Positions 273 to 24,000 of a DNA stretch of 24,000 nucleotides are shown here, piece after piece; the stretch's first letter is position 1, and each line of letters starts with the position of its first letter. Under the pieces are notes generated by a model. It made no database searches, was not told where the DNA came from, and worked only from the letters and a program-made list of their open reading frames with translations. The translations under genes and the position numbers were made by a program. The stretch is taken from positions 1,677-25,676 of the forward strand of contig QMYR01000008.1 in NCBI GenBank assembly GCA_003662765.1. The letters are read 5' to 3'. The DNA comes from Candidatus Thorarchaeota archaeon. Lineage in GTDB: Archaea > Asgardarchaeota > Thorarchaeia > Thorarchaeales > Thorarchaeaceae.

Positions 273-725
273 ATGCCCACAATCTACGACATCCCGGCAA
301 ATATCTTCATCCGCCGTCTTGCCCAAGAGCTCAAGACGAGAAAAGAGATTCAGCCACCCGAGTGGGCTCCATTCGTCAAGACTGGCGCTCATAAGGAGAG
401 AGGCCCAGACAATCCAGACTGGTGGTATATTAGGTGTGCCAGCATTCTGAGGAAAGTGTACCTCAGAGGACCAATTGGGACTGAGCGCCTTAGGGTGGAG
501 TACGGTGGACGGAAGAGAAGGGGATGCAAACCGAACAGGTTTTACAAGGGCAGTGGAGCAATTGTCAGAACAGCACTACAACAGCTCGAGCGAGCTGGCT
601 TTGTGAAGCGGCGCGGGAACAAGGGACGAGAGCTGACAGATATCGGCCGGTCTTACTTGGACAAGCTGTCAGCTGTGATCAAACGAGAACTCGAGAAGGC
701 GATTCCTGAACTAAGCAAATACTGA
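273..725 (+). CDS. rps19e: 30S ribosomal protein S19e (eS19)
   Basis: 150 aa with ATG start and TGA stop. Typical eS19 sequence: PPEWAPFVKTGAHKERGPDNPDWWYIRCASILRKVY...GSGAIVRTALQQLE. It sits at the head of the conserved archaeal S19e-L39e-L31e-aIF6 cluster. Confidence 0.95.
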   Translation: MPTIYDIPANIFIRRLAQELKTRKEIQPPEWAPFVKTGAHKERGPDNPDWWYIRCASILRKVYLRGPIGTERLRVEYGGRKRRGCKPNRFYKGSGAIVRTALQQLERAGFVKRRGNKGRELTDIGRSYLDKLSAVIKRELEKAIPELSKY

Positions 726-734
726 GTCTACTGA

Positions 735-1076
735 GTGGTGAATCGTGTGAGCGAAGATGAGCTTGAGGCAATCCGCCAGCGGAAGCTTGCTGCCCTTAGA
801 GAGCAGGCTCTCCGCCAGCAAGCAGCCGAACAGAGGGCTGCGGAGGCGGAAGCTCAGAAGGAGGCCATCCTCAGGCAGATTCTCACACCAGAGGCGCGTG
901 CGCGACTGACCAATATCAAGATGGTTCGCCCGCAGTTCGCAGAGCAGATTGAACTGCAGCTCATCCAATTGGCCTCGGCAGGAAGACTCAGATCAAAGGT
1001 GACGGACGAACAGCTCAAGGCGCTCCTGCAGCAGATACGCGGTAGGGAGCGCGAACCGAAGATCACATTCAGATGA
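735..1076 (+). CDS. PDCD5/TFAR19-like DNA-binding protein (MTH1615 family)
   Basis: 113 aa with GTG start. It has a charged helical N-terminus and the family core [41 protein letters not shown]. It occupies the usual position between S19e and L39e. Confidence 0.85.
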
Positions 1077-1102
1077 ACGAGGTTGCTGCACGAGGTGAAG
1101 AG

Positions 1103-1258
1103 ATGGCAAGAAACAAGCCGTTGGGAAAGAAACTGAGGCTGGCAAAAGCCCTCAAGAGCAATAGCAGTGTCCCTACATGGGCAGTCATGAAGACTGGCGG
1201 AAAAGTCAGAAGAACACCCGCGCAGCGTCACTGGCGTCAGACAAAACTAAAGCCATAG
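1103..1258 (+). CDS. rpl39e: 50S ribosomal protein L39e (eL39)
   Basis: The track ORF starts at 1073. The internal ATG at 1103, preceded by GGTGA, gives the canonical 51-aa [51 protein letters not shown]. Confidence 0.9.
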
Positions 1259-1272
1259 CCAGGTGTACATAG

Positions 1273-1677
1273 ATGACTCCCGAGGAACAGCCAGAACTTG
1301 AGGGTGTTGAGGAGATCTCCGAAACCGAAGAGGTTGAAGAGGCAATAGAGGAAGAGGCCGAAGCGGAAGAGGAAGTCACTGAAGTTCCAACAGAGGCACC
1401 TCCTGAGGAAGAGGAGGAGATTGTTGACGAACGGATATACACGGTTCCGCTCCGCAAGGCCTACTGGACTGGTAGTAGATTGCGCAGGGCGAAGAGGGCG
1501 GTGAGAATCCTTAGGGAGTTCGTTGAGAGACACATGAAGCCAGAGGAGATTCACATCCAGCCCGAGGTCAACGAGAAGATCTGGTCGAGGGGAATCCAGA
1601 AGCCGCCACGAAGAATCCGAATTCGTGCAACCAAGAACTCGGAGAACCTTGTGCGTGTCTACTTGGCGGAGGGATAG
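1273..1677 (+). CDS. rpl31e: 50S ribosomal protein L31e (eL31) with ~50-aa acidic N-terminal extension
   Basis: The C-terminal ~80 aa (RIYTVPLRKAYWTGSRLRRAKRAVRILREFVERHMK...IWSRGIQKPPRRIRIRA) are typical eL31. The first ~53 aa are Glu-rich low complexity. The stop is TAG at 1675-1677. Confidence 0.9.
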   Translation: MTPEEQPELEGVEEISETEEVEEAIEEEAEAEEEVTEVPTEAPPEEEEEIVDERIYTVPLRKAYWTGSRLRRAKRAVRILREFVERHMKPEEIHIQPEVNEKIWSRGIQKPPRRIRIRATKNSENLVRVYLAEG

Positions 1678-1686
1678 CCTACGACA

Positions 1687-2349
1687 ATCGCCCGAACCGA
1701 CTTTGAGGGCGATTCGAATGTAGGAGCGTTTGCAATTGCCACAGACCGCTTTGTATTCGTGTCACCAAACATGTCTGAGAAGTCACTAGCCGTAATCAAG
1801 AAGACGTTCAACCTTCCGTTGGTCATGTCTACAGTAGCCACATTGGATGCAGTCGGGATTATGTCGTCAGCCAACTCGAATGGTATCATTGTACCATACA
1901 CTACCACGGACGAGGAATTGGCACAACTCAGGAAGAGCTCGGAGGTCCCCGTGGATTGGATTGATAGCAAGATGACGGCATTGGGAAACATTGTCCTCGC
2001 GAATGATAACGGCGCGATATGCCATTCGGAGTTCGACTCAGCTGCCCGACAGAAAATCTCGGATGTCTTGGATGTTGAGGTGGTGCCAGGAACCGTGGCG
2101 CGACTTCCAATCGTGGGCTCGAATACAATCGCAACAAACGTGGGAGCCGTTGTTCATCCCCTAGCCACAGAGGAGGAGATGGAGATGATAGCAGAGCTGT
2201 TAAAAGTGGACGTTGAGGCTGGAACCGTGAACCGCGGAAGTCCGTACACGAGACTCGGTGTCATTGCGAACACCGATGCGATGATAGTGGGCTCCGAAAC
2301 AACCGGTGTCGAGTTGGCACATATCTCACAGGTATTGGGACTGGTATAG
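1687..2349 (+). CDS. eif6: translation initiation factor 6 (aIF6); 5' boundary unresolved
   Basis: aIF6 family sequence runs throughout (TALGNIVLANDNGAICH, LPIVGSNTIATNVGAVVHP, GVIANTDAMIVGSETTGVEL). The first canonical start is GTG 1759 (ATG 1771). The conserved N-terminal strand IARTDFEGDSNVGAFAIATDRFVFV is encoded at 1687-1758 in the same frame, immediately after the L31e TAG. The only candidate starts there are ACG 1681, ACA 1684 and ATC 1687. Confidence 0.85.
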   Translation: MARTDFEGDSNVGAFAIATDRFVFVSPNMSEKSLAVIKKTFNLPLVMSTVATLDAVGIMSSANSNGIIVPYTTTDEELAQLRKSSEVPVDWIDSKMTALGNIVLANDNGAICHSEFDSAARQKISDVLDVEVVPGTVARLPIVGSNTIATNVGAVVHPLATEEEMEMIAELLKVDVEAGTVNRGSPYTRLGVIANTDAMIVGSETTGVELAHISQVLGLV

Positions 2350-2598
2350 GTGATGCAGATGAGTTCGAAAGTTTGGCGTGCGAAGGGAGAATATCAGAAG
2401 AACAAGAGGCGATTCACATTCAGTAGGGAGCTTCTGGCATTGAATGAGTCACAAGTTCGCGAGAGAATCCTCTCAGAACTTGGCAGCCGTCATCGTGTCA
2501 AACGGAGAAACATCGTGATCAGCGAAATTAGAGAGATCAAGCCAGAAGAAGTTCAGAGCCTTGAGTTAAGAAAGATGCTTGGTGTGGAGAGCGTGTGA
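2350..2598 (+). CDS. rplX: 50S ribosomal protein LX (L18Ae/eL20 family)
   Basis: 82 aa with GTG 2350 or ATG 2353. KVWRAKGEY...FSRELLALNESQVRERILSELGSRHRVKRRNIVISEIREI matches the LX pattern, and the gene lies in the conserved position after aIF6. Confidence 0.85.
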   Translation: MMQMSSKVWRAKGEYQKNKRRFTFSRELLALNESQVRERILSELGSRHRVKRRNIVISEIREIKPEEVQSLELRKMLGVESV

Positions 2599-2599
2599 G

Positions 2600-3034
2600 A
2601 TGAGCGCAGAGCAACAGCGTGCCCTGCAACAGCTCTCAGCAGAACAACAGATTGTGTCATCGAACATCGAGCTGATTAAGCAGCGAATGGAACTCACGCA
2701 AGCGTACATTCGGGACCAACGAACTGGCCTAAAGACTCTCGAAGAGCTGGAGAGCAGAGCTGCTGGAGAGGAGATTCTACTCCATGTCGGCGGCGGACTC
2801 TTGATTGAGGCAAAGATAACAGACCCGAACAAGGTGATCAGGGACATCGGCAGTGGTGTACGCGTGGAGTCCACGCTCACCGAGGCCAAGGAGAAGGCCA
2901 GTGAGATAATCAAGCGGCTGGAGGAGCAATACAACAACCTTGCAAAGGAGTTGGAGAAGCTCGGTGCTCACGCTGCAGACGTTGATGCTCGGTTGAGGCA
3001 GCTCCTTGCAGATATTCGGTCCGGGGAGAAGTGA
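2600..3034 (+). CDS. pfdA: prefoldin alpha subunit
   Basis: ATG 2600 lies one nt after the LX stop. The layout is coiled coil, beta hairpins (EILLHVGGGLLIEAKITDPNKVIRDIGSGVRVE), coiled coil. The gene lies in the conserved position before ftsY. Confidence 0.85.
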   Translation: MSAEQQRALQQLSAEQQIVSSNIELIKQRMELTQAYIRDQRTGLKTLEELESRAAGEEILLHVGGGLLIEAKITDPNKVIRDIGSGVRVESTLTEAKEKASEIIKRLEEQYNNLAKELEKLGAHAADVDARLRQLLADIRSGEK

Positions 3035-3948
3035 AGCCTGTGTTTGAGAAGCTTCGCGGAGCACTTGACACTGCAATCACAAAGGCGACCACAAAGGAAC
3101 TTAATGAGAAGAATCTTGCCGATGCCGTCTGGCAACTTCAGCTAGTCCTCATCCAGAACGATGTGGCTGTTGAAGTGGCCGAGAGAATATGTGACCTGAC
3201 CAAGCAGAAGATTCTTGGCAAGAGGACCGGCCGTTTCGAAAATGTAGTCAGACTGTTCAAGAGCGCAATCTACGAGTCCATTCTCGATGTATTGGCACCA
3301 GAACATCCTCTCGACGTAATTCAATATGTTGAGAAGAAGAGAGAATCGGGCGAGCCAACAGTAATCATGTTTGTGGGAGTCAATGGAACTGGGAAGACAA
3401 CGACTCTCGCGAAGATGGCGTATTTGCTAAAGAAAAACGGCTTCTCTGTCGTCGCAGCCGCAGCCGATACGTATCGTGCGGGAAGCATAGAACAGCTGGA
3501 GCAGCATGCTAGTCGCCTAGGAATCAGAGTAATAAAGCAGAGCTATGGGGCTGATGCCGCAGCCGTGGCGTACGACACGGTGGCACATGCACGAGCAAAG
3601 CGTACTGATGTAGTCCTGATAGATACAGCTGGGAGAATGCAGAGCAACAAGAACCTCTTGGCTGAGATGGCAAAGATTGCACGAGTCGCGGAACCGGATC
3701 TCAAGATCTTTGTCGGAGACGCACTCGCAGGAAACGACGCTCTCTCCCAAGCAAAGGAGTTTCACGATGCAATCAGCATTGACGGAGCAATTCTGACGAA
3801 GGTGGATGCTGATCCTTCAGGAGGCGCTGCTTTATCAATCGCCTTTGTGACAGGGAGTCCAATAGTCTACGTTGGTGTCGGGCAAGAATATGATGATCTT
3901 CAGCCCTTTGACCCTGAGTGGTTTGCCCGGCGGCTGGTTGGCGATTGA
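3031..3948 (+). CDS. ftsY: signal recognition particle receptor FtsY
   Basis: The GTG start overlaps the pfdA stop (GTGA). SRP-GTPase motifs are present: GVNGTGKTTT, DTAGR, TKVD, and GVGQEYDDL at the C-terminus. Confidence 0.95.
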   Translation: MKPVFEKLRGALDTAITKATTKELNEKNLADAVWQLQLVLIQNDVAVEVAERICDLTKQKILGKRTGRFENVVRLFKSAIYESILDVLAPEHPLDVIQYVEKKRESGEPTVIMFVGVNGTGKTTTLAKMAYLLKKNGFSVVAAAADTYRAGSIEQLEQHASRLGIRVIKQSYGADAAAVAYDTVAHARAKRTDVVLIDTAGRMQSNKNLLAEMAKIARVAEPDLKIFVGDALAGNDALSQAKEFHDAISIDGAILTKVDADPSGGAALSIAFVTGSPIVYVGVGQEYDDLQPFDPEWFARRLVGD

Positions 3949-3953
3949 GAGCC

Positions 3954-3990
3954 TGTGCATCTTCATAGATGCACATGGTGAGTTTTATTA
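3954..3990 (+). terminator. hairpin TGTGCATCT-TCAT-AGATGCACA (3954-3975) followed by a T-rich stretch
   Basis: A perfect 9-bp stem with a 4-nt loop begins 6 nt after the ftsY stop and is followed by GAGTTTTATTA. That T/A run could alternatively serve as the argF TATA box. Confidence 0.35.
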
Positions 3991-4039
3991 CACGGTACCT
4001 TTCAGTCTGCGTCTAACGACAGTCTGAGAGGTTACCGAG

Positions 4040-4963
4040 TTGAGTCTACGAGGTAGAAACTTCATTGACCTGTCGCACTTCGAGAGATACGAATTGCGCA
4101 GGATACTGGATACAGCACATGATCTGAAGCGTAAGCAGAAGAGAGGAGAGCCGCATGAGCTTCTAAAGGGCAAGTCCCTTGCCATGATTTTCATGAAGTC
4201 CTCAACACGGACAAGAGTTTCATTTGAAGTTGGCATGACACAACTTGGCGGCCATGCACTCTATCTTCAGCCTAGTGGAACCCAACTGGGCAGGGGCGAA
4301 ACAATCGGCGATACGGCGAAGGTGCTGAGCAGGTACTGTGACGCCATCATGGCTAGGGTCTATGGTCACAATGAGGTAGTGGAACTAGCGGAGCATGCCA
4401 CCGTCCCTGTGATCAACGGTCTCTCGGACTTACTTCACCCCTGTCAGATAATGGCTGACATGATGACGATCGAAGAACACAAGGGTTGTCTCAAGGGACT
4501 CAAGATAGCCTATGTGGGCGATTCCAACAACGTGAGCAATTCAATCATGCAGGGCTGCACGATTATGGGAATGAATGTGACAATTGGTTCTCCCAAGGGG
4601 TACACGCCAGTCCCGGAGATATTGAAACGCGCAACCGAGCTGAGCGAGCGCTATGACACGGCACTCGAAGTTGTGAATGACCCCTACGAGGCCGTGAAGA
4701 ATGCAGATGTGATATACACTGATACGTTCTTCAGCATGGGCCAAGAGAGAACGAAAGAAAAGGAAGAGGCGCTGATGCCATTCCAAGTGAATCAGGCACT
4801 TGTTGATGCGGCCAAGAAGGATGTCATAGTGATGCATTGCTTGCCGGCCCACAGGGGTGAGGAAATCACAGACGAGGTCATGGACGGACCTCATAGCGTC
4901 GTCTTTGATGAGGCTGAGAACAGGCTCCATGCTCAAAAGGCAATCCTCGCATTGATTGTATAG
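4040..4963 (+). CDS. argF: ornithine carbamoyltransferase
   Basis: 307 aa with TTG start. Motifs SSTRTRVSFE, HPCQIMAD, DTFFSMGQE and HCLPAHRGEE favour OTCase over ATCase. Confidence 0.9.
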   Translation: MSLRGRNFIDLSHFERYELRRILDTAHDLKRKQKRGEPHELLKGKSLAMIFMKSSTRTRVSFEVGMTQLGGHALYLQPSGTQLGRGETIGDTAKVLSRYCDAIMARVYGHNEVVELAEHATVPVINGLSDLLHPCQIMADMMTIEEHKGCLKGLKIAYVGDSNNVSNSIMQGCTIMGMNVTIGSPKGYTPVPEILKRATELSERYDTALEVVNDPYEAVKNADVIYTDTFFSMGQERTKEKEEALMPFQVNQALVDAAKKDVIVMHCLPAHRGEEITDEVMDGPHSVVFDEAENRLHAQKAILALIV

Positions 4964-4974
4964 GGGCATAGAGT

Positions 4975-5934
4975 ATGTCCGTAGAGGTCTTCTCAATAGG
5001 CAGAGTCAATATCGATGTTTGCCTCGGAGTTGATCGACTACCTGCATCTGAGGAACATCGTATTGCCAAAGATGGATGCATCTCAGCAGGAGGCTCGGCA
5101 GCGAACTTTGCTGCACAGATGGCGAGGCTGGGTGTCAAGACCGGCCTTATCAGTTGTATTGGAAACGACCTCTACGGGCAGACTATGCTTAGAGACCTCG
5201 GACGAGCTGGCGTTGACACAAGTACTGTACTAGTGCTCGACAAACAGCCAACGGGCATCTTCCTAAGCATCGTTGACGATGCTGGCAAGCGTAACGTCGT
5301 GGTTCAACCGGGTGCCAACAAGTTTCTTGAGAAGCACGTTCTCGATGAGAGTCTCCTTGTTCGCGCAAGCACGATACACATGGCTGGCGGGTTCCCGATG
5401 ATGACGGAGAGAGCCGCCGAGATCGCCACAGTCAACGGGATAGTGTTCTCCTTCGATCCTGGGCGCGCAGCATCGTCGGTAGACTTCAAGAGGGTGCTTC
5501 CTCAAACGGATCTGCTATTCATGAACGAACACGAGGTCAAGACCTACGCAGGCATAAATCCCAATGAGAGAGCTCTAAGAAGATTCGCGAAGACGTTTCC
5601 AGGAATACTCGTTGTCAAACTGGCTCAGAGAGGAGCGGTTGCAACAGACGGTTTCGAGTTCTGTAAATCAGAGGCTTTCAATGTCAAAGTGGTGGACACG
5701 CTAGGTGCGGGGGACGCATTCGCGGCAGGTTTTGTTGCAGCGTGGACACGATGTGAGAAGATAGAGCAGGCGCTTCACATGGCGAATGCTGTTGCTGCTC
5801 TGACAATACGAGAGCGTGGAGCACAAAACGGTCAACCGTCGCTCGACGAAACTGCCAAGTTCCTCTCCGACCACGGAATCTCAATAGATAATGTGCTGCG
5901 AACTTTCAGGCGAGGCAAGAAAAGAAGGAGATAG
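4975..5934 (+). CDS. PfkB-family carbohydrate/nucleoside kinase (ribokinase-like)
   Basis: 319 aa. An N-terminal GG dipeptide region (AGGSAANFA) and the C-terminal anion-hole motif DTLGAGDAFAAGF are present. The substrate is not inferable. The protein ends in a basic tail, RRGKKRRR. Confidence 0.85.
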   Translation: MSVEVFSIGRVNIDVCLGVDRLPASEEHRIAKDGCISAGGSAANFAAQMARLGVKTGLISCIGNDLYGQTMLRDLGRAGVDTSTVLVLDKQPTGIFLSIVDDAGKRNVVVQPGANKFLEKHVLDESLLVRASTIHMAGGFPMMTERAAEIATVNGIVFSFDPGRAASSVDFKRVLPQTDLLFMNEHEVKTYAGINPNERALRRFAKTFPGILVVKLAQRGAVATDGFEFCKSEAFNVKVVDTLGAGDAFAAGFVAAWTRCEKIEQALHMANAVAALTIRERGAQNGQPSLDETAKFLSDHGISIDNVLRTFRRGKKRRR

Positions 5935-6012
5935 TGCAGCCATATTACGTGGGTAGTATTCTACTTTTTGTTGGCAGAACACGTGAGCAATAGCTGTCGG
6001 AAGGTGTGACAG

Positions 6013-7188
6013 ATGCATCCGCTCCTAGAAGAGGTTCTTAGCAGCACAGCAAGCACAAGGGGGAACTTGAGTCCTCCGAGGACGGCAAGACGTAGAGGAA
6101 CAAAGAGCGAAACAACAGATGAGGAACTTGCAGGTCTGCTGGAGTCGGTCACTGCAAGGATACTTGTCGTAGGAGTCGGCGGTGCCGGCAACAATGCGAT
6201 TACAAGACTGATGGAGGTGGGGGTAGAAGGCGCCGAAACCCTTGCAGTCAATACTGATGCCCAAGACCTATACTACTGCAATGCCCATCACAAGCTGCTC
6301 CTCGGCAGGGAATGCTGCGGAGGACTGGGTGCAGGAAATGATCCGGATGTGGGAGAGGCTGCTGCAATCGAAACCTACGATGTGATCAAGGATATAGTTC
6401 AAGCAGACCTTGTGTTCATAACTGCCGGTATGGGCGGTGGAACCGGCACTGGGGCAGCACCACTGATTGCAAAGGCTGCACGTGAGAATGGGGCGCTGAC
6501 CGTGGCGATTGTCTGTCTTCCTTTCGAGGTTGAGGGCGCGACGAGGAAGAAGAATGCCACAAGGGGGCTCAATGCACTCATGGAACACGTCGACACTCTG
6601 ATTGCCATTCCGAACGAGAAGCTGCTAGAAATCGCACCTGACCTGTCACTGTCGGAGGCCTTCATGGTTGCAGATGAGGTATTGGTCAGGGCCGTGAAGG
6701 GAATCGCAGAATTGGTTTCTCGCCCGGGCCTAGTGAACCTCGACTTCGCGGATGTCAGAACCACGATGAGAAACGGAGGCGTTTCTATAATCGCGCTCGG
6801 CGAGGGACAGGGAGAGAACAGGGCTGAAGAGGCCGTTTATAATGCCCTTCAGAACCCGCTCATTGACGTGTCAATTGAGAATGCAAGAAACATTCTCATA
6901 AACGTGAGCGGCAGCGCAGACCTGCAGCTGGCCGAGGCTAAGAGAGTCGTGGAACTGGTCACCGAACAGGTCCATCCTGGAGCAGAGATTATCTACGGGG
7001 CGCTGATAGTGCCAGAGCTTGAGGATCGTCTCCGGGTCACAATCATTGCCTCTGGAGTGAGCTCACCGTATGTCTTCGACGCCGGGACAGAGTCTGTCGC
7101 CCCCCTAGCTGATGAACTCGGTGAACTGGAACAAGATGAGGGAGAGAGTGGGCACGGTTTCGATGAGCTGGGTATCGCACGTCTATAG
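6013..7188 (+). CDS. ftsZ: cell division GTPase FtsZ
   Basis: Motifs GVGGAGNNA, NTDAQDL and the tubulin signature GGGTGTGAAP are present, with an acidic C-terminal tail. GGAAGGTG lies upstream of the ATG. The position upstream of secE-spt5-L11 is conserved in many archaea. Confidence 0.95.
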   Translation: MHPLLEEVLSSTASTRGNLSPPRTARRRGTKSETTDEELAGLLESVTARILVVGVGGAGNNAITRLMEVGVEGAETLAVNTDAQDLYYCNAHHKLLLGRECCGGLGAGNDPDVGEAAAIETYDVIKDIVQADLVFITAGMGGGTGTGAAPLIAKAARENGALTVAIVCLPFEVEGATRKKNATRGLNALMEHVDTLIAIPNEKLLEIAPDLSLSEAFMVADEVLVRAVKGIAELVSRPGLVNLDFADVRTTMRNGGVSIIALGEGQGENRAEEAVYNALQNPLIDVSIENARNILINVSGSADLQLAEAKRVVELVTEQVHPGAEIIYGALIVPELEDRLRVTIIASGVSSPYVFDAGTESVAPLADELGELEQDEGESGHGFDELGIARL

Positions 7189-7215
7189 CCTCACGCGATG
7201 TGGCTACTCAGGAAG

Positions 7216-7251
7216 TATTAAAAGCGGACTGCCAAGATGCTCAGGCAGTCC
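7216..7251 (+). promoter_or_regulatory. TATA-like box (TATTAAAA 7216-7223) followed by palindrome GGACTGCC-N10-GGCAGTCC (7226-7251), upstream of secE-spt5
   Basis: A perfect 8-bp inverted repeat directly follows an A/T box. Its 5' arm, GCGGACTGCCAAG, recurs at 178-190. Confidence 0.35.
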
Positions 7252-7289
7252 TGTAGTCGTGCGCGAGAGCCGCAGGCAGGTTGATACTC

Positions 7290-7472
7290 ATGGGTGTGAG
7301 CCAGTTCATCAACGATAGTAGGAGAATCTTAAGGTTGGCCACCAAGCCCTCAAGAAAGGAGCTCTGGATGAGCACTAAGGTCAGCCTTCTCGCCATGGTA
7401 CTGGTAGGTATGCTTAGCTTTGTGGTCCAAGTAATAATGACCACCGTGACTGGTAACTGGTTTGGCTCATAG
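7290..7472 (+). CDS. secE: preprotein translocase subunit SecE (Sec61 gamma)
   Basis: ~60 aa. RRILRLATKPSRKELWMSTKV is followed by one TM helix (SLLAMVLVGMLSFVVQVIM). ATG is at 7290; the track uses TTG 7281. The gene lies in the conserved position before spt5. Confidence 0.8.
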   Translation: MGVSQFINDSRRILRLATKPSRKELWMSTKVSLLAMVLVGMLSFVVQVIMTTVTGNWFGS

Positions 7473-7510
7473 ATGCGCAAATACGTGGAGCAGAAGGGAG
7501 ATTGGACAAA

Positions 7511-8167
7511 ATGCCGAAGACTAGCATATTCGCTGTGAGAACTACGATTGGCCAAGAACGTAGTGTGACAGATCTCATAACAACAGCAGTCATAGGCGAA
7601 CAGGATGTCTGGGAGTGCCCCTTCTGCTCAGAGCAGTTCTCATCAGAGGAGATTACACTTGAGCATATGAAAAAATGCCCAAAAAAGAAGGGTGACGCCA
7701 AGCCGAAACTCGTGTCTCGGAACCCATTACTGGGTCGTGTCAAGGCCATTCTTGTACCAGAAACGCTCAGAGGCTATGTCTTCATTGAAACAGAGGAGTA
7801 TAGAGACGTAGAGATTGCGATATCCGGAGTGCCTCATGTGAGGGGAAGAGTCAGCGGAAAGGTCAGCACTGAAGAGATTGACAGATACCTCGTGCCGAAA
7901 CCGGCAGCTGAAGGAATCGCAGTTTCTGACATTGTGGAGATAATCTCAGGACCGTTCAAGGGCGAACGGGCACGTGTGACACGAGTGGATGCAGCAAAGG
8001 AGGAATTGATTGTCGATCTCATCGACAGCCCCCACACCATACCCATGAGGATACACGCAGACTTCACCAAGCTCGTGGAGAAGGCTCAACGGGAAGAAGC
8101 CATGGAAGCTGCCGAAACTGCGGCCGAAGAGGAGGAGGAAGAGGACTCGTTCTGGTCGCGGCAATAG
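7511..8167 (+). CDS. spt5: transcription elongation factor Spt5 (NusG) with an inserted zinc-finger-like segment and an acidic tail
   Basis: The NGN domain is recognisable (IFAVRTTIGQERSV...LRGYVFIETEE...VPHVRG), as is the KOW domain (DIVEIISGPFKGERARVTRVD). ATG is at 7511. A ~45-aa insertion carries CPFC-x12-H-x3-C. The C-terminus is Glu/Ala-rich. Confidence 0.9.
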   Translation: MPKTSIFAVRTTIGQERSVTDLITTAVIGEQDVWECPFCSEQFSSEEITLEHMKKCPKKKGDAKPKLVSRNPLLGRVKAILVPETLRGYVFIETEEYRDVEIAISGVPHVRGRVSGKVSTEEIDRYLVPKPAAEGIAVSDIVEIISGPFKGERARVTRVDAAKEELIVDLIDSPHTIPMRIHADFTKLVEKAQREEAMEAAETAAEEEEEEDSFWSRQ

Positions 8168-8420
8168 ACCAGTGAACACCTGTTGTGCATGCAGTCGGAG
8201 CAGTCATGTAAACTGGCCGCCGCTCCACAAGCCTTAAAAAACGACCCGGCGACGAGAGGCCAGTCCCTTAATTTGACATCGACGCATCGACGTCATGTCT
8301 GGGGTGAAGAACGATGAACAAGCATGCAGTAGACCGAGCAGGTGATCAATCTACTTCTTACCTGCAGGTCGACCCAACTGGCCTTGTCAAGAACGGGCCG
8401 GGAATACTGCATGAGGAGTC

Positions 8421-8930
8421 GTGATGGTTTTGGGTGACAAGATAACAGTAGAAGCACTAGTAGAGGGCGGCAAGGCATCAGGAGGTCCGCCAATCGGTCC
8501 GGCACTTGGTCCGACCGGTGTGAACATCTTCCAAGTGGTCACAAAGATCAACGAGGCCACGCAGCCTTTCGCAGGTCTAAAGGTACCAGTGAAGATCATT
8601 GTCGACCAAGACACAAAGGAGTTCGAGGTGGAGGTTGGAGTCCCTCCGACGAGCGCATTGATTCTCAAGGAGATTGGCGCGCCCAAAGGGTCAGGTACGC
8701 CCAACACAGACTTTGTGGGCAACCTGACAATCGATCAGTTGAAGGAGATTGCCAAGGCCAAGGCTTCAGAGCTGTCCGCATTGGACATGAAGGCTGCGGT
8801 AATGACGATATCAGGCACTTGCGTGTCCATGGGAGTGACCATTGAGGGGAAGCCCGCCAAGGAATTCCAGAGAGAGGTTCGCGAGGGTGTTTGGGACGAA
8901 CACCTCCAAGAACCACTGAGGGAGGAGTGA
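8421..8930 (+). CDS. rpl11: 50S ribosomal protein L11 (uL11)
   Basis: GTG 8421 or ATG 8424, preceded by GAGGAG. Family motifs: GGKASGGPPIGPALGPTGVNI and FEVEVGVPPTSALI. Confidence 0.95.
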   Translation: MMVLGDKITVEALVEGGKASGGPPIGPALGPTGVNIFQVVTKINEATQPFAGLKVPVKIIVDQDTKEFEVEVGVPPTSALILKEIGAPKGSGTPNTDFVGNLTIDQLKEIAKAKASELSALDMKAAVMTISGTCVSMGVTIEGKPAKEFQREVREGVWDEHLQEPLREE

Positions 8931-8935
8931 GCCAG

Positions 8936-9598
8936 ATGTCGTTCAATATTGATAACATCGAGGCGGCGGTGACTGAGGCTCGGGCCAAGGGAAAGGAACG
9001 GAAGATCAAGTTCGAGCAGAGCTTTGATCTGGCGGTGAATTTCCGGAAGAAGGAGCTGGACGTTTCGAAGCCAGAGAACAGGTTCAACCAGGAGGTTCTG
9101 CTCCCCCACAAGCTGTACCCCCCGGCCAAGGTCTGCGCCTTTGGGGATGGTGAGTTTGCTGCGAAGGCCAAGGAGGCGGGGGTCAATCGAGTAGTATCGA
9201 AGGAGGAGATTCCCAAGATTGCAGAGGAGAAGAAGACGCGGAAGGCGTTGGCCAAGGCGTTCGACTTCTTTATCGCCTCGATAGACTCCATGCCACTGGT
9301 TGGTAGATATCTCGGTCAAGTCCTTGGTTCGCGTGGAAAGATGCCCAAGCCGTTCCCACCCCAAGCTGATCTCAAGCCAGTGGTCGATCAGTATCAGCGC
9401 ACAGTGAGGGTACGGATGCGAAACACACCCACCTTCCATGTGAAGGTCGGCCACGAACGAATGAGTGACCGGGAGATTGCAGAGAACGTGGCGGCAATCC
9501 TCGGGTTTGTAGAGAACAAGGGGCAGCTCGACAAGGTCGCAAGTGTGGTGATCAAGACAACCATGGGGCCCTCTGTGAAGGTGTCCTCGTGGAGGTGA
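8936..9598 (+). CDS. rpl1: 50S ribosomal protein L1 (uL1)
   Basis: ATG 8936 lies 5 nt after the L11 stop, with GGAGGAGTGA upstream. The track ORF start at 8891 overlaps L11. Family sequence: FDLAVNF...PH, FDFFIAS, LGSRGKMPKP. Confidence 0.95.
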   Translation: MSFNIDNIEAAVTEARAKGKERKIKFEQSFDLAVNFRKKELDVSKPENRFNQEVLLPHKLYPPAKVCAFGDGEFAAKAKEAGVNRVVSKEEIPKIAEEKKTRKALAKAFDFFIASIDSMPLVGRYLGQVLGSRGKMPKPFPPQADLKPVVDQYQRTVRVRMRNTPTFHVKVGHERMSDREIAENVAAILGFVENKGQLDKVASVVIKTTMGPSVKVSSWR

Positions 9599-9604
9599 TA
9601 GCTA

Positions 9605-10624
9605 ATGGCAGTTCAAGAGCGCCACATACCACAGTGGAAGATTGAAGAGGTTGACAAGCTGGCAGAGGCCATCAAGAAGAGCAAGATGGTGGGCCTCGTA
9701 AATGTGGAGGGAGTGGGTGCCAAGCAGCTGACCAGTATCAGAAACAGTCTGCGAGGAAGCGCCACAATCCGCATGGCCAGAAACACACTCATGATTCGAG
9801 CCATCAAGAAATCGGGCGTCAAGGGAATCGAGGAGCTTGCCAATCACGTGCGAGGGCCTGTTGCCTTTGTCTTCAGCGACCAAGACCCCTTCATGCTGGG
9901 CAAGTTTCTCAGTGAGAACAAGACATCAGCCCCCGCCAAGGGAGGCCAGATTGCACCAAAAGACATCATAGTCCCAGCAATGAACACAGGTGTTGCGCCC
10001 GGTCCGTTCATCAGCGAACTGGCAGCACTTGGCATTCCGTCCCGTGTCAAGGGTGGCGTGATTCACATCACCGAGGACACCGTGGCCGTGAAGGCGGGTG
10101 AAGTAATCTCAAACGCCATGGCCCAGATGCTTAGCAGACTTGGGATTGAACCCATGGAGCTTCAACTGAAGCTCGTAGCGGCATATACAGATGGCACGGT
10201 TCTCACAAGCGAGAGCCTCGATGTTGACCTTGAGGAGCTATTCCAGCAGGTCATACTCGGGCACCAGTACGCTGTCAATCTCTCAATCAACGCGGGATAT
10301 CCGACCAGCGATACGATCCCACTGATCATCGCAAAGGCCGATATGGAAGCAAGAACCCTCGCGCTGAATATTGGGTTCTTCGAACCGGACTTGGTTCGGG
10401 AGTTCCTTGCGAAGGCGAATGCCGAGGCCTTTGCCTTGGCATCACTATTGGCTGAGAAGAGTCCCGATGCAATACCCTCCGAGGTCCTGAGTCAGGTTCA
10501 GGCAGTCGCCGCGGCTCCAGCAGCCGCACCGGCCGACGCCGGCGCAGAGGCGAAGGAAGAGCCTGAGGAGGAAGAGGAGAAGGAAGAAGAAGCAGTAGCA
10601 GGCCTCGGTGGCCTGTTCGGGTAA
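9605..10624 (+). CDS. rplP0: 50S ribosomal stalk protein P0 (uL10)
   Basis: 339 aa. IPQWKIEEV is followed by the uL10 core, then an Ala/Glu-rich hinge and the stalk C-terminus [13 protein letters not shown]. Confidence 0.95.
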
Positions 10625-17084: not shown

Positions 17085-17372
17085 TCATCCGCCTTGAACA
17101 TGGGGCAGTAGGGCAAGCTCGTCACCATCGTGGACTCGTGTTTCCAGCCCATCGAGTGTGTTGACATCACGTTTGTTTAGCATGACTATGAAGTTCCCAC
17201 TGATACCTTCATCGTCCTTGAGAAGAGAGTGAAGCTCCGGCCCAATCCTATCTACCAAGTACTCAATCACGTCTTTGACACGGGATTCTTCTGGGACATC
17301 GATGCTCATCTCTCCGGTACCACAGACTCTCCGTATGGGGCCGAACAGTTTGAAGCGTATGTTCAACGCCAA
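17085..17372 (-). CDS. MoaD/ThiS-family ubiquitin-like small protein (SAMP-like) ending in Gly-Gly
   Basis: 95 aa with a beta-grasp-like pattern (IRFKLFGPIR...DVIEYLV...MLNKRDV...VHDGDELALLPHVQGG). The diglycine is the last residue pair before the stop. Confidence 0.7.
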   Translation of the reverse strand: MALNIRFKLFGPIRRVCGTGEMSIDVPEESRVKDVIEYLVDRIGPELHSLLKDDEGISGNFIVMLNKRDVNTLDGLETRVHDGDELALLPHVQGG

Positions 17373-17389: not shown

Positions 17390-17767
17390 TCATTTCAATG
17401 CAGAGGCTAACTCGTCCACCATCGATTCGATTTCTGCCACTACAGTTTCCAAATCCTGTGGCGAGGCGTTGTCGATGTGTACACCGACAGTGACAACAAC
17501 GGGTGTATTGAGTGCCTTTGCCAACCGTTCGGCCAGCGGACCTGAAACTACATAGTCCTTGTGTCCTGGCAATGATAAGGTACTCATGGTCACTATGGAT
17601 GCGTCACGGAATTCGCTTTTGGAGGGATAGGCAACTGAAACGGCACCCACGTGAGGCACATCCCCACCGTAGATCATCACGGAGAGGCTCTTGCCAATCC
17701 ATTTTGCCTCTGCCATGAGGGCAAACCTGCCAAGCTCTCTGCGAATCATCAACGGGAAGACATCCAC
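17390..17767 (-). CDS. small conserved protein, LpdD-like (prenyl-FMN chaperone-like family); tentative name
   Basis: 125 aa. The motifs GGDVPHVGAV, PGHKD and VTVGVH, in that order, resemble the gallate decarboxylase accessory protein LpdD family as I remember it (GGTNPHIGDV...HKD...AGIH). The start is GTG 17767 or a downstream ATG. Confidence 0.45.
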   Translation of the reverse strand: MDVFPLMIRRELGRFALMAEAKWIGKSLSVMIYGGDVPHVGAVSVAYPSKSEFRDASIVTMSTLSLPGHKDYVVSGPLAERLAKALNTPVVVTVGVHIDNASPQDLETVVAEIESMVDELASALK

Positions 17768-20881: not shown

Positions 20882-21223
20882 GTGAAGAGATGGCTCATGG
20901 ATATCCTCGCGTGCCCGGACCCCGAGTGCAGGAGCGAGCTAGAGCTCGAAGTGTTCGCCTTGCACGAGGAAACTTCTGAGGACGGCACAACCTATGAGGA
21001 GATTGATGAGGCACTCATAACATGCCCGAATTGCGGAAGGTGGTATCCGGTAATCGACGGGATTGCTTGTCTGCTCCCTGACGAACACCGGATTACCGGA
21101 AAGCAGAGAATCGAGGAAACGGCGTTCCTCGAGAGGTGGAAAGACCGCATAGACGCGAAGATAATTAACAGCGGTAGACCGTTCGGTCTGAACTCTACAC
21201 ATGACACTGTATCAGCCAGCTGA
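20882..21223 (+). CDS. Trm112-like zinc-ribbon protein (DUF343 family)
   Basis: 113 aa. LMDILACPDPEC...LITCPNCGRWYPVIDGIACLLPDE is the Trm112/YcaR signature (two Cys pairs and DGIP-like LLP). A ~45-aa C-terminal extension follows. Confidence 0.8.
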   Translation: MKRWLMDILACPDPECRSELELEVFALHEETSEDGTTYEEIDEALITCPNCGRWYPVIDGIACLLPDEHRITGKQRIEETAFLERWKDRIDAKIINSGRPFGLNSTHDTVSAS

Positions 21224-21303: not shown

Positions 21304-22158
21304 CTACTTCTCGCGAAGACTGGGATGTTCGGCGGAATCGTCAATCTGAACCTTGAATAGACGCTTCACCTGTGACAATACTAGACGCTCGCCATTCACC
21401 AGTACGTTCACGGAGATATGGTCTTTCAGACCGGTCGTCGAGATCTTCTTTTGGAGCACTGCCTGAACTTGGAAGACGCCTGCCGGATTGTCCATCGCCA
21501 CGGTGATCAGAAGGGGAGTCGACTCGCCCCTTTCCAGAATGACCTCTTCGATCGCCAAGGCGCTGACAGAGTGAATGTCAACCTTACCCTTCTGATAGGG
21601 GATTATCGTACGGCCCTTCGTCATATCGCATCCGTCCCCAATCTTGGTCACTCCGGCCTCAAAAGTCAGACACTGTGTGTCATCGTCATGTGCGTAGATT
21701 CCGTGAAGCGCGAAAGAGAGGATATCCGTCGCCTTCCCCGGGTCCTCGTAGATCTCGGCCAGTTTTGCCTCCAGAATGGGGTGGGCAAGCTGTACTGCAG
21801 CCTGAGGATGCTCATTGCGGTGGATGACCATCCCGATATCATGAAGGTAGGTAGAGGCAAGCACGACAAGTTTGGCATCATCGATATCGCCTATGCCCTC
21901 GGCGACGACATTGGGAATGAATGACTCCTCGAGTATCTCGAAGGCCTTCAGGGCATTCCACGTAGCAACCTCGGCATGGGTGGGGCCGTGGTCCGTGTAG
22001 CCCAGTCTCGAAACGGCCATGCGATTGGCTGTTCTTAGATACGATTGAACACGTGGAGAGTTGCGAAGATACTGGTACATCTCCATTGCCTTGGTGCCCG
22101 GCTCCAAGAGGTCACCAACGCTAATCTTCTCTCGATCAAACACAAGTTCAGGGTTCAT
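21304..22158 (-). CDS. HD-domain metal-dependent phosphohydrolase
   Basis: ~284 aa from ATG 22158; the track uses TTG 22173. H...HD signature: DHGPTHAEV and STYLHDIGMVIHRNEH. Confidence 0.8.
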   Translation of the reverse strand: MNPELVFDREKISVGDLLEPGTKAMEMYQYLRNSPRVQSYLRTANRMAVSRLGYTDHGPTHAEVATWNALKAFEILEESFIPNVVAEGIGDIDDAKLVVLASTYLHDIGMVIHRNEHPQAAVQLAHPILEAKLAEIYEDPGKATDILSFALHGIYAHDDDTQCLTFEAGVTKIGDGCDMTKGRTIIPYQKGKVDIHSVSALAIEEVILERGESTPLLITVAMDNPAGVFQVQAVLQKKISTTGLKDHISVNVLVNGERLVLSQVKRLFKVQIDDSAEHPSLREK

Positions 22159-22233
22159 CGTTATACACCCCAAAGGGGCATAACCGACACAACCATCCTG
22201 TGATAAGGCTTGTGTAGTGACCAGCTGGAATGC

Positions 22234-24000
22234 CTATACCTCACCAGCCTCCTCCTGAAGCGATAGGAGGATGCGGTCGGTTGCAGTGACGGCCTGCTTG
22301 ATTGTCTTGAGGTACTCTTGGCGTGTCTTCTCAAATGCAGCCCTGCTGATCTTCTGTTTCTTCTTTCGAAGAAGGAGCTGCCTGAGACCAGCCTTGGCAC
22401 CCTCGATTCTCTCCTCTTGTAGCTCAAGCTGACCTATCACGTCACGATATCGTGAGCCGTATGATATGAGTTCCTCTTTCAGCGAGGCGAGCTGTGCATC
22501 TAGCTTCTCAAGCTGCGCCTTGATATCGCGCTCGCGAACCATGAATTCTCGTTTCGAAACTTTTCCTCTCTTTCGAGCAGACTCGAGCTTTTCGAGGTCC
22601 AAGTTGAGGGCGGTCTTCTTGGAGTAGGCCTTTGCGAACTCACTGAGTAGTTCTGGCGGGGCACCAGCTTGCCTCACAACTGCGGCCTCTTCCTCTGGCG
22701 ACATCTCACCCTCGACGGGCAGCTCCACCTTCCGCACTGAAACGTAGAGCGCAGCAACAAGGCCAATTATCAATGCAAACAGGAGCGGCCGCGCAAGAAT
22801 GGCTGGCGTCATCTGATACACGAGTGAGATTTCAATCGGATTCCGTTGTGTGGTGTTGTAAGCAGTATAGCGGAGTATTGCGTCAAAGCCCCCGTAGAGT
22901 AGTCTGTACTCACCTGAGGCTTGAATCACATTCACTGACACTGGAACAACAATATCAACTGTGTGGGTCTTGACTAGGATCTCGTCTATCGTGCTCATTG
23001 GAAACTCAATCTCGTTGCCATCAGTAGCCGATTTCTGGTACTGCGGCAGATACAAATCATACTCCACATAGAAGGTGTAGTGGTAGTTGGGCATGAAGCC
23101 CTCGTCACCGAAACGATCCTTCTTCAGATTAATACGCTGCTTCAACGTTTCGTTCCAGTTGTAGTCGCTTGGCTGCGATGAGGCCAAGATCCCCAGTCTG
23201 TCATAGATGCGGACGTTGGACATGTAGGCCGGAAACGTGTAGGCAATGTCCGTTTCTCTTGCTGGACCAACGTTGTCCAGTGTAATAGTTTCCTTGTAGT
23301 GCAACCAGCCCCAAGGGTCAATGCGAATTTCAGTCTTGCGAGTGGCCACGATGTCAGGCGTGAAGGACTTCATCAGGAGTGTGAACTCCTCGTAAGTGAA
23401 GGGGTTGACATTGTAGTAGACACCCTCAGGGTTAGTGCCGTTGTAGAACGAGTCTCCGCTTCTGAAGGCCATGGATATTGACAGTCGGTCGATGACGTAG
23501 GGCAACATCGGGTACTTGTAGAATTGAAGACTGTAGATGTTATCATCATAGTTATAGATCTCCTGAAGAGAGTGGAAATACATGACAACAGTAAACTTGT
23601 AGGAGTCACCCGCCTCGACAGGTGAGGCGAAATAGACGCGCCAGCGATACATTCCACCTTCATCAGGGAGCTTTAGCACATCAAGCGGGTTCTCGGACGA
23701 GTCCTCAGCTTCGATGGAGAGAAAGTTATTCCTGTATGTGTCAGGGAGATACACTTCAATCGCTGAGATGGGAAGTGCGTTCTCGTTCTTCACCTTGATC
23801 TCGTCTGTCGACTTTACACCATGATACATGAGGGTCGTGATCGTACGGGATATGGTGAGCGACATTCCGAGAAGTGGGTTGTAAGGAATATGCACGGTCA
23901 CATTCCGGGAAATCACTACGGTCACATTGGACGCGTCGGTGGCATTTAGCCAGACCGTGTGTACACTCCCCGACTCATAAACAGACGCATCCAGTGTGAA
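22234..24000 (-). CDS. ribophorin I / OST1-like membrane protein (5' end lies beyond the window)
   Basis: The frame stays open from TAG 22234-22236 to base 24000; the GTG at 23925 in the track is internal. The layout is a beta-rich ectodomain, one TM helix (ILARPLLFALIIGLVAALYVSV), then a ~165-aa charged coiled-coil tail. Several local stretches match eukaryotic ribophorin I from memory (listed in the corresponding finding). Confidence 0.7.
   Translation of the reverse strand, partial: FTLDASVYESGSVHTVWLNATDASNVTVVISRNVTVHIPYNPLLGMSLTISRTITTLMYHGVKSTDEIKVKNENALPISAIEVYLPDTYRNNFLSIEAEDSSENPLDVLKLPDEGGMYRWRVYFASPVEAGDSYKFTVVMYFHSLQEIYNYDDNIYSLQFYKYPMLPYVIDRLSISMAFRSGDSFYNGTNPEGVYYNVNPFTYEEFTLLMKSFTPDIVATRKTEIRIDPWGWLHYKETITLDNVGPARETDIAYTFPAYMSNVRIYDRLGILASSQPSDYNWNETLKQRINLKKDRFGDEGFMPNYHYTFYVEYDLYLPQYQKSATDGNEIEFPMSTIDEILVKTHTVDIVVPVSVNVIQASGEYRLLYGGFDAILRYTAYNTTQRNPIEISLVYQMTPAILARPLLFALIIGLVAALYVSVRKVELPVEGEMSPEEEAAVVRQAGAPPELLSEFAKAYSKKTALNLDLEKLESARKRGKVSKREFMVRERDIKAQLEKLDAQLASLKEELISYGSRYRDVIGQLELQEERIEGAKAGLRQLLLRKKKQKISRAAFEKTRQEYLKTIKQAVTATDRILLSLQEEAGEV

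Follow-up and report, generated by a model that had tools for sequence, protein, structure and literature searches.

A Thorarchaeota Ost1/ribophorin I gene with a cytosolic domain related to the ribosome-binding OST1 domain of a Lokiarchaeon

Does the unfinished open reading frame (ORF) at the end of a Thorarchaeota contig segment encode ribophorin I (Ost1), a subunit of the oligosaccharyltransferase (OST), and does the protein carry the cytosolic domain by which ribophorin I contacts the ribosome? The question arises from a stretch of 24,000 nucleotides, hereafter the window, that was taken from a Candidatus Thorarchaeota archaeon (assembly GCA_003662765.1, contig QMYR01000008.1, positions 1,677 to 25,676). 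On its minus strand, positions 22234-24000 form a stop-free frame of 588 codons which, as the preliminary description of this DNA had stated, is still open at base 24000. The same description took the encoded protein for a ribophorin I (OST1) homologue. This identification is borne out by the RPN1/Ost1 fold, a profile alignment with RPN1, matches of relatives to the Pfam family PF04597 and a tail of the 8WHN type, and we conclude with high confidence that the frame is a Thorarchaeota orthologue of Ost1/ribophorin I. In the following, residue numbers refer to the 588-residue window fragment unless the full-length homologue P0001 is named.

A comparison of the predicted fold with known structures, as proposed in the preliminary description, was performed with Foldseek against the PDB using the AlphaFold model of the window fragment (mean predicted local distance difference test score, pLDDT, 87). 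The top eight of 1191 matches are all chains of human RPN1 (8b6l_O, 8pn9_E, 6s7o_E and 6s7t_E) or yeast Ost1 (8agb_E, 7oci_A, 6ezn_A and 6c26_1), with E values from 6e-31 to 5e-18 and TM-scores to the target of up to 0.67, and their PDB entries were verified to hold 'Dolichyl-diphosphooligosaccharide--protein glycosyltransferase subunit 1'. The next class, the integrin calf domains, starts at 1e-7, leaving a gap of more than ten orders of magnitude; a model of the full-length homologue gave the identical ranking. Human RPN1 (chain E of 6S7O, 6S7T and 8PN9, chain O of 8B6L) is the best structural neighbour, aligned over about 597 columns including the tail region with an E value of 6e-31. Like the window protein, it crosses the membrane with a single helix and continues into a cytosolic domain of four helices, which in RPN1 binds ribosomes (PMC11417166). 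However, the two proteins are only 14-16% identical, and RPN1 is a protein of the endoplasmic reticulum (ER) without FKBP or immunoglobulin (Ig) domains that, unlike the window copy, matches Pfam directly. Yeast Ost1 (6EZN chain A, 6C26 chain 1, 7OCI and 8AGB) shares the luminal fold, with E values of 4e-22 to 5e-18 and TM-scores to the target of 0.62-0.64, and likewise has a single transmembrane helix, whereas with 476 amino acids it ends just past this helix and lacks the cytosolic helical domain kept in the window protein.

Alignment of the family with human RPN1 by hhalign paired window residues 48-408 with RPN1 34-442 over 342 collinear columns (P 6e-5); the RPN1 sequence used here is identical to PDB residues 25-607. 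Three stretches of human RPN1 that had been quoted earlier as resembling the window protein proved verbatim correct (RPN1 111-139, 231-254 and 438-458). By hhalign they fall in the same regions (228-254, 110-139 and the start of the transmembrane segment, 438-442), and all three pairs score above shuffled controls (z 5.5, 3.3 and 2.7). Moreover, PF04597 (Ribophorin_I) is reached through the relatives of the window copy. Orthologues with 50-55% identity lie narrowly above its gathering score of 25 bits (P0014 with 25.1 bits, P0011 with 28.7 bits), and four of 16 family members match by themselves, the best with an E value of 2e-10. When searched exhaustively, the profile of the ectodomain yielded 190 relatives, the named ones stemming from Ranarchaeia and Lokiarchaeota/Promethearchaeota; five out of ten that were sampled, including proteins of about 570-670 amino acids, match PF04597 at 2e-13 to 2e-24.

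The architecture proposed at the outset, a beta-rich ectodomain, one hydrophobic helix and a helical tail of about 165 amino acids rich in K, E and R, is matched by model, hydropathy and composition. Residues 13-397 are nearly all beta strand in the model. The Kyte-Doolittle maximum (residues 400-418) is the sole strongly hydrophobic segment and coincides with a model helix. The tail, comprising the last 164 amino acids, contains 14.6% E, 13.4% L, 11% K, 11% A and 8.5% R. All six N-x-S/T sequons belong to the ectodomain, the tail being devoid of them, a distribution that fits a predicted outside-inside (type I) topology.

The tail had been described as a cytosolic coiled coil. Its cytosolic location and helical nature stand, but instead of a coiled coil the model contains a four-helix bundle (residues 449-477, 483-512, 516-547 and 553-585) homologous to 8WHN, which is the OST1 cytosolic domain of the Lokiarchaeon MK-D1 (PMC11417166). 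Because residues 438-581 match 8whn_A ('Ribophorin 1 superfamily protein') in phmmer with an E value of 2e-6, and the family profile matches the same chain with 4.8e-9, we assign the window tail on sequence grounds to the 8WHN domain family. Pull-down experiments published in 2024 revealed that the cytosolic domains of both MK-D1 and human OST1/RPN1 bind ribosomes (PMC11417166). The Asgard protein MK-D1 OST1 (Candidatus Prometheoarchaeum syntrophicum, WP_147663064.1) shares with the window protein the order of extracellular domain, one transmembrane helix and helical domain, and the homology of the cytosolic domains extends over all four helices, with a modest similarity of 30-37 bits. In contrast, its 607 amino acids, with an extracellular part spanning residues 33-425, leave no room for the extension of about 400 amino acids with FKBP and Ig-like domains found in Thorarchaeota (see below).

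Between helices 3 and 4 of the tail we observed a near-invariant basic loop, RKKKQ(K/R)ISR, and the net charge of the tail is about +9. From the homology to 8WHN, this conserved loop and the positive charge we infer that the window tail may bind ribosomes. In Foldseek, RPN1 chains that include the tail are aligned over 597 columns (E 6e-31), a chain without it over 448 columns (E 8e-23). Matches of the charged helical tail to GvpG (E 0.018) and SUN2 (E 0.14) were below the cutoffs and taken as compositional noise.

The stop codon of the Ost1 frame lies at 22234-22236, and the 563-amino-acid ORF with a GTG start in the mechanical ORF list merely begins where this frame first offers a start codon within the window. 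Among 68 database relatives, P0001 ranks first, with 97% identity across all 588 residues and a length of 985 amino acids; nearly all of the others comprise about 930-1010 amino acids and stem from metagenome-assembled genomes of Thorarchaeota or Sifarchaeia, which confirms the Asgard-like origin assumed for the contig. The contig of P0001 (L001) is collinear with the reverse-complemented window at about 93% nucleotide identity. Judged by this homologue, the window fragment represents the C-terminal 60% of a protein of about 985 amino acids, with about 397 codons (the 5' 1.19 kb, approximately) located past base 24000. Since the codons that differ from the closest orthologue comprise 96 with synonymous changes only as compared to 16 that change the amino acid, and since 100 of the 117 nucleotide differences are at third codon positions, the gene is functional and under purifying selection. 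The four-helix domain contributes a single substitution, the rest of the fragment 15.

The part beyond the window qualifies the earlier statement that the protein keeps the complete eukaryote-like topology: the type I arrangement with a cytosolic helical domain holds, but the roughly 397 N-terminal residues, which carry FKBP and Ig-like domains absent from RPN1, had been missed. In full-length homologues the ribophorin module is preceded by an FKBP_C domain (residues of about 150-220) and an Ig-like domain of Big_7 type (about 340-410). The FKBP_C scores exceed the cutoff of PF00254 (21.1 bits) in P0001 (28.3 bits), P0060 (36.1 bits) and P0073 (50.8 bits), the domain lying entirely outside the window. 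Searched against the PDB, the whole-family profile finds only 8WHN and FKBPs, among the latter FKBP2, FKBP14 and plant FKBP chains, and does not find RPN1. The model of P0001 (pLDDT 84.7) places these domains as listed in Table 1. Compared with FKBP12 by hhalign, in an alignment that is weak (P 4.6e-5), the FKBP pocket keeps Y26 and Y82 and has Y in place of W59, whereas F36, D37, R42 and F46 appear to be lost.

A scan of species-representative genomes with one peptide pattern (DPWGW...), by which a second, divergent and unfused paralogue would go undetected, identified 51 loci in 51 genomes, nearly all labelled Thorarchaeota, including SMTZ1-45 and AB_25. Extension and ribophorin module are encoded in one frame at all 48 loci with upstream sequence, and in 47 of them the tail continues in the same frame, the exception being a locus cut at its 3' end. 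Because the single frame is found at every testable locus, the FKBP fusion is a fixed feature of the lineage and no assembly artefact. Remoter relatives of 550-640 amino acids match from residue 35-60 or so onwards and are devoid of the extension. Used alone as a query, the N-terminal module retrieved only eight fragments, all from Thorarchaeota and located on short contigs, and no homologue that exists by itself, a weak result, as the full-length family was not listed either. In public annotation, the Thorarchaeota relatives are designated only 'FKBP-type peptidyl-prolyl cis-trans isomerase', and their Ost1 identity has been missed. Fragments of the Thorarchaeota Ost1 family were also observed on a contig of 2.7 kb that is assigned to a 'Pirellulales bacterium' (L052, CAYTND010000390.1) and in a protein labelled 'Deltaproteobacteria bacterium' (P0232); both are probably mis-binned.

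With regard to genomic context, two independent arrangements in other lineages support a role in N-glycosylation and translocation. A Lokiarchaeal Ribophorin_I gene (L006) is flanked by genes for Sec61beta and Trm112 and by a gene of the family PF00953 (Glycos_transf_4), and a same-strand cluster in another lineage (L005:3115-7818) comprises STT3 (687 amino acids), two ORFs of 119 and 141 amino acids and Ribophorin_I (605 amino acids). The two small ORFs, which yielded no match in Pfam or NCBIfam, could encode small OST subunits. In four contigs from Thorarchaeota and Sifarchaeia (L001-L004), a PF00953 gene is located divergently upstream of Ost1, just past the position of the window edge. The MraY/WecA/Alg7 superfamily, to which PF00953 corresponds, includes enzymes that start the synthesis of dolichol-linked glycans.

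The best explanation for these observations, and in our view a likely one, is that the gene encodes the Ost1 of Thorarchaeota, a non-catalytic OST subunit composed of an ectodomain with RPN1/Ost1 fold, one transmembrane helix and a ribosome-docking four-helix domain. The protein would reside in the cytoplasmic membrane as the Ost1 subunit beside the catalytic AglB/STT3 and the Sec translocon. There, its extracellular lobes would flank the catalytic subunit, while the basic four-helix domain would dock on the large ribosomal subunit. Thereby, OST would act on nascent chains emerging from SecYEG/Sec61, as RPN1 does in the mammalian OST-A at the ER. The FKBP/Ig extension of Thorarchaeota, in turn, might put a proline isomerase or a chaperone-like module at the translocon exit. 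For the ribosome-coupled mechanism as such, the balance tips only slightly to its favour.

Several results weigh against this interpretation. In the Pfam scan, the window copy gave no match to PF04597 at E<=1, a search with little power for a single divergent sequence; of the profile comparison proposed in the preliminary description, only the matches of orthologues and remoter relatives thus came true. Likewise, the window protein has no match in NCBIfam, the hhalign probability against human RPN1 is 65%, and the ectodomain-only profile, when run by hmmsearch against the PDB sequences, never reaches RPN1 or Ost1 chains, the best matches being VP40 and titin at E>0.4. A direct hhalign comparison of the tail with the human RPN1 tail revealed no significant similarity (P 0.078). 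Because of this, the link of the tail to eukaryotes rests on 8WHN, the position behind the homologous transmembrane helix, the fold and the Foldseek alignments, which are longer and of lower E value for tail-bearing RPN1 chains. Annotation of the window genes revealed no STT3, Ost3/6 or Sec genes, and the vicinity of the PF00953 gene within Thorarchaeota is weak evidence, which we discounted because the whole Thorarchaeota neighbourhood is syntenic. Moreover, the N-glycans of the sole Asgard archaeon studied in this respect display no clearly eukaryote-like traits (PMC11284389). Both the membership of the window protein in an OST complex and its binding to ribosomes are predictions.

These points bear on the alternatives to different degrees. 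That the frame encodes an unrelated beta-domain protein of the S-layer or adhesin type, similar to RPN1 by chance, might be suggested by the missing direct Pfam match of the window copy and by the generic beta-sandwich proteins (integrins, S-layer SbsB, aminopeptidases) that appear lower in the Foldseek lists. Of the two findings that together were to refute the preliminary identification, the absent profile match applies only narrowly, and the unrelated fold neighbours clearly do not apply. The best structural neighbours are RPN1 and Ost1 rather than such folds, separated from all others by the gap described above, and the collinear hhalign alignment, the transitive profile link to PF04597 and the homology of the tail to an OST1 domain speak likewise against a chance resemblance; on the evidence of fold, hhalign and profiles, this possibility is refuted to a degree that leaves it hardly any probability. 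A quite improbable but more substantial alternative would be a membrane-anchored protein that acts mainly as an extracellular folding catalyst or surface protein on a ribophorin-like scaffold, independent of OST and the ribosome, in keeping with the isomerase annotation given by NCBI. It would account for FKBP_C domains that score above the Pfam cutoff in full-length homologues (28-51 bits versus 21.1), for the fixation of this module in 48 of 48 testable loci and for Thorarchaeota contigs in which no OST catalytic gene adjoins Ost1. Yet the most conserved parts of the protein are the ribophorin module, the transmembrane helix and the near-invariant tail, the latter being a homologue of a domain with demonstrated ribosome binding, whereas the canonical pocket residues F36, D37, R42 and F46 of the FKBP module appear to be lost. 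In addition, the genes of relatives that lack the module adjoin STT3 or Sec61beta.

It is also conceivable, though unlikely, that the protein is an OST subunit in which the tail serves as a generic helical domain for oligomerization or regulation and makes no contact with the ribosome in Thorarchaeota, so that coupling would not be co-translational. Such a role would agree with the lack of significant sequence similarity to the human tail and with yeast Ost1, which works without such a domain, its chain ending just past the transmembrane segment; besides, the sole evidence for ribosome binding is a heterologous pull-down with the Lokiarchaeal protein. What argues against a generic tail is the clear homology to 8WHN over all four helices, the near-invariant basic loop together with the positive net charge, and the single substitution in the tail as opposed to 15 in the rest of the fragment.

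How much does the window gene add to what is known? Ost1/ribophorin I of Asgard archaea has already been reported (PMC10307638, with reference to its citation 3), and Thorarchaeota are among the lineages in a published ribophorin I tree (bioRxiv 10.1101/858530). OST1 has also been described in TACK archaea (PMC11417166), which disputes the earlier statement that homologues outside eukaryotes occur only in Asgard archaea. Since both Asgard Ost1 and the binding of its tail to ribosomes are published, the window gene is a correct identification of an already known kind of protein. It had been proposed as a good object for the question whether ribosome-coupled N-glycosylation predates eukaryotes, but its significance was overstated, given the reports in PMC11417166 and PMC10307638. 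The Ost1 of P. syntrophicum MK-D1 was called absent in PMC11284389 (2024), yet in PMC11417166 it was identified in this organism and its cytosolic domain crystallized; this discrepancy shows that routine searches overlook divergent Ost1 proteins of Asgard archaea. As a 'eukaryotic signature protein', Asgard Ost1 has been used to argue for a ribosome-coupled Sec61-OST-TRAP translocon before eukaryotes. To this argument the window copy adds a well-conserved example from Thorarchaeota, with a tail of the ribosome-binding type under strong constraint, and the added value is small, as experiments with the Lokiarchaeal protein have already taken up the question.

The lineage-specific FKBP/Ig extension, which is absent from the Ost1 proteins of about 600 amino acids of other Asgard lineages and from those of eukaryotes, is what could matter. 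The fusion also suggests that folding catalysis and N-glycosylation may be connected at the translocon of archaea, which is testable. We found no description of the FKBP-Ost1 fusion in the searchable literature, and it is possibly the only new aspect of the locus. As a tentative proposal, which we hold to be rather doubtful, the Ost1 of Thorarchaeota might permanently bear its own extracellular FKBP module, a folding helper wired to the exit site of glycosylation and translocation. If this were true, the fusion would be the cis-encoded counterpart of the association of FKBP11 with OST-A at the human translocon. FKBP11 (9N9J) likewise provides an exoplasmic module of FKBP fold next to OST; it is a separate membrane protein recruited in trans to ribosome-associated translocons beside OST-A (PMC12804085), whereas the FKBP fold of Thorarchaeota is fused to the OST subunit itself. 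FKBP11 has a ribosome-binding C-terminal helix of its own and has been argued to be an adaptor rather than an isomerase (PMC12804085). With a family-profile match to FKBP11 at an E value of 0.017, the likeness is a functional analogy only.

Table 1. Features of the Thorarchaeota Ost1 gene in the window, of its full-length homologue and of orthologous contigs. Bare coordinates are those of the window; contig coordinates carry the name of the contig.
Feature	Location	Strand	Basis or remark
C-terminal 588 codons and stop codon of the Ost1/ribophorin I gene (about 985 codons in full)	22234..24000	-	translation, identity to P0001, collinearity with L001, purifying selection
Residues 1-35: C-terminal portion of a domain of Ig-like (Big_7) type begun outside the window, with three NxS/T sequons	23896..24000	-	Big_7 matches at about 340-410 in full-length homologues; model strands 13-21 and 27-35
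Residues 46-397: extracellular domain of ribophorin I type, with beta-sandwich lobes	22810..23865	-	Foldseek; hhalign to RPN1 34-442; profile matches to PF04597-positive proteins of about 600 amino acids
Residues 399-425: sole transmembrane helix, with R/K after it (positive inside)	22726..22806	-	hydropathy; model helix; start aligned with RPN1 438-442
Residues 426-448: acidic linker of low confidence	22657..22725	-	pLDDT <50 at residues 427-444
Residues 449-585: four-helix domain on the cytosolic side, homologue of the domain by which Lokiarchaeal OST1 binds ribosomes	22246..22656	-	phmmer to 8whn_A, family profile, model, conservation
N-terminal extension in orthologous contigs	L001:10001-11191; same region of L002-L004 and L008-L057		past window base 24000
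N-terminal hydrophobic (signal/anchor) helix of P0001	P0001 residues 3-18		model
Beta domain with embedded FKBP fold, then Ig-like domain of P0001	between helix 3-18 and ribophorin module		model
Ribophorin module of P0001	P0001 residues 443-794		model
Transmembrane helix of P0001	P0001 residues 797-821		model
Four cytosolic helices of P0001	P0001 residues 846-982		model
PF00953 gene	L001:8748-9782	-	far below the MraY equivalog cutoffs
PF00953 gene	L002:4758-5789; L003:4763-5800; L004:4794-5813		upstream of Thorarchaeota Ost1; far below the MraY equivalog cutoffs
PF00953 gene	L006:6833-8200		near Lokiarchaeal Ribophorin_I, with Trm112 and Sec61beta

The remainder of the window holds genes for subunits of the glycine-cleavage P-protein, radical-SAM enzymes and an AIR-synthase-like protein, as well as for the ribosomal proteins S19e, L31e and L10/P0, and for eIF6, prefoldin, Spt5, an FtsY-type signal recognition particle (SRP) receptor GTPase and FtsZ, among others. 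Positions 273-10624 of the plus strand constitute a run of information-processing and cell-division genes, with S19e, L31e, eIF6, prefoldin, a carbamoyltransferase, a PfkB kinase, Spt5 and L10/P0. The SRP receptor GTPase gene (3031-3948, plus strand) is located about 18 kb from Ost1, and the gene for FtsZ at 6013-7188 (plus strand). On the same strand as Ost1 and 61 nucleotides downstream of it, we observed an ORF of 289 amino acids (21304-22173, minus strand) with a sub-threshold match to an HD domain (E 0.006) and no match in NCBIfam; L001-L004 contain in the same position a gene for about 285 amino acids without a Pfam match. By collinearity with L001, the ORF at 20882-21223 (plus strand) corresponds to Trm112p, the gene for which also adjoins Ribophorin_I in L006. 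Likewise, those at 17085-17372 and 17390-17767 (both minus strand) correspond to a ThiS/Urm1-like protein and a protein of the LpdD_chaperone family, respectively, and have the genes for the glycine-cleavage P-protein on one side and a radical-SAM gene of MiaB type on the other.

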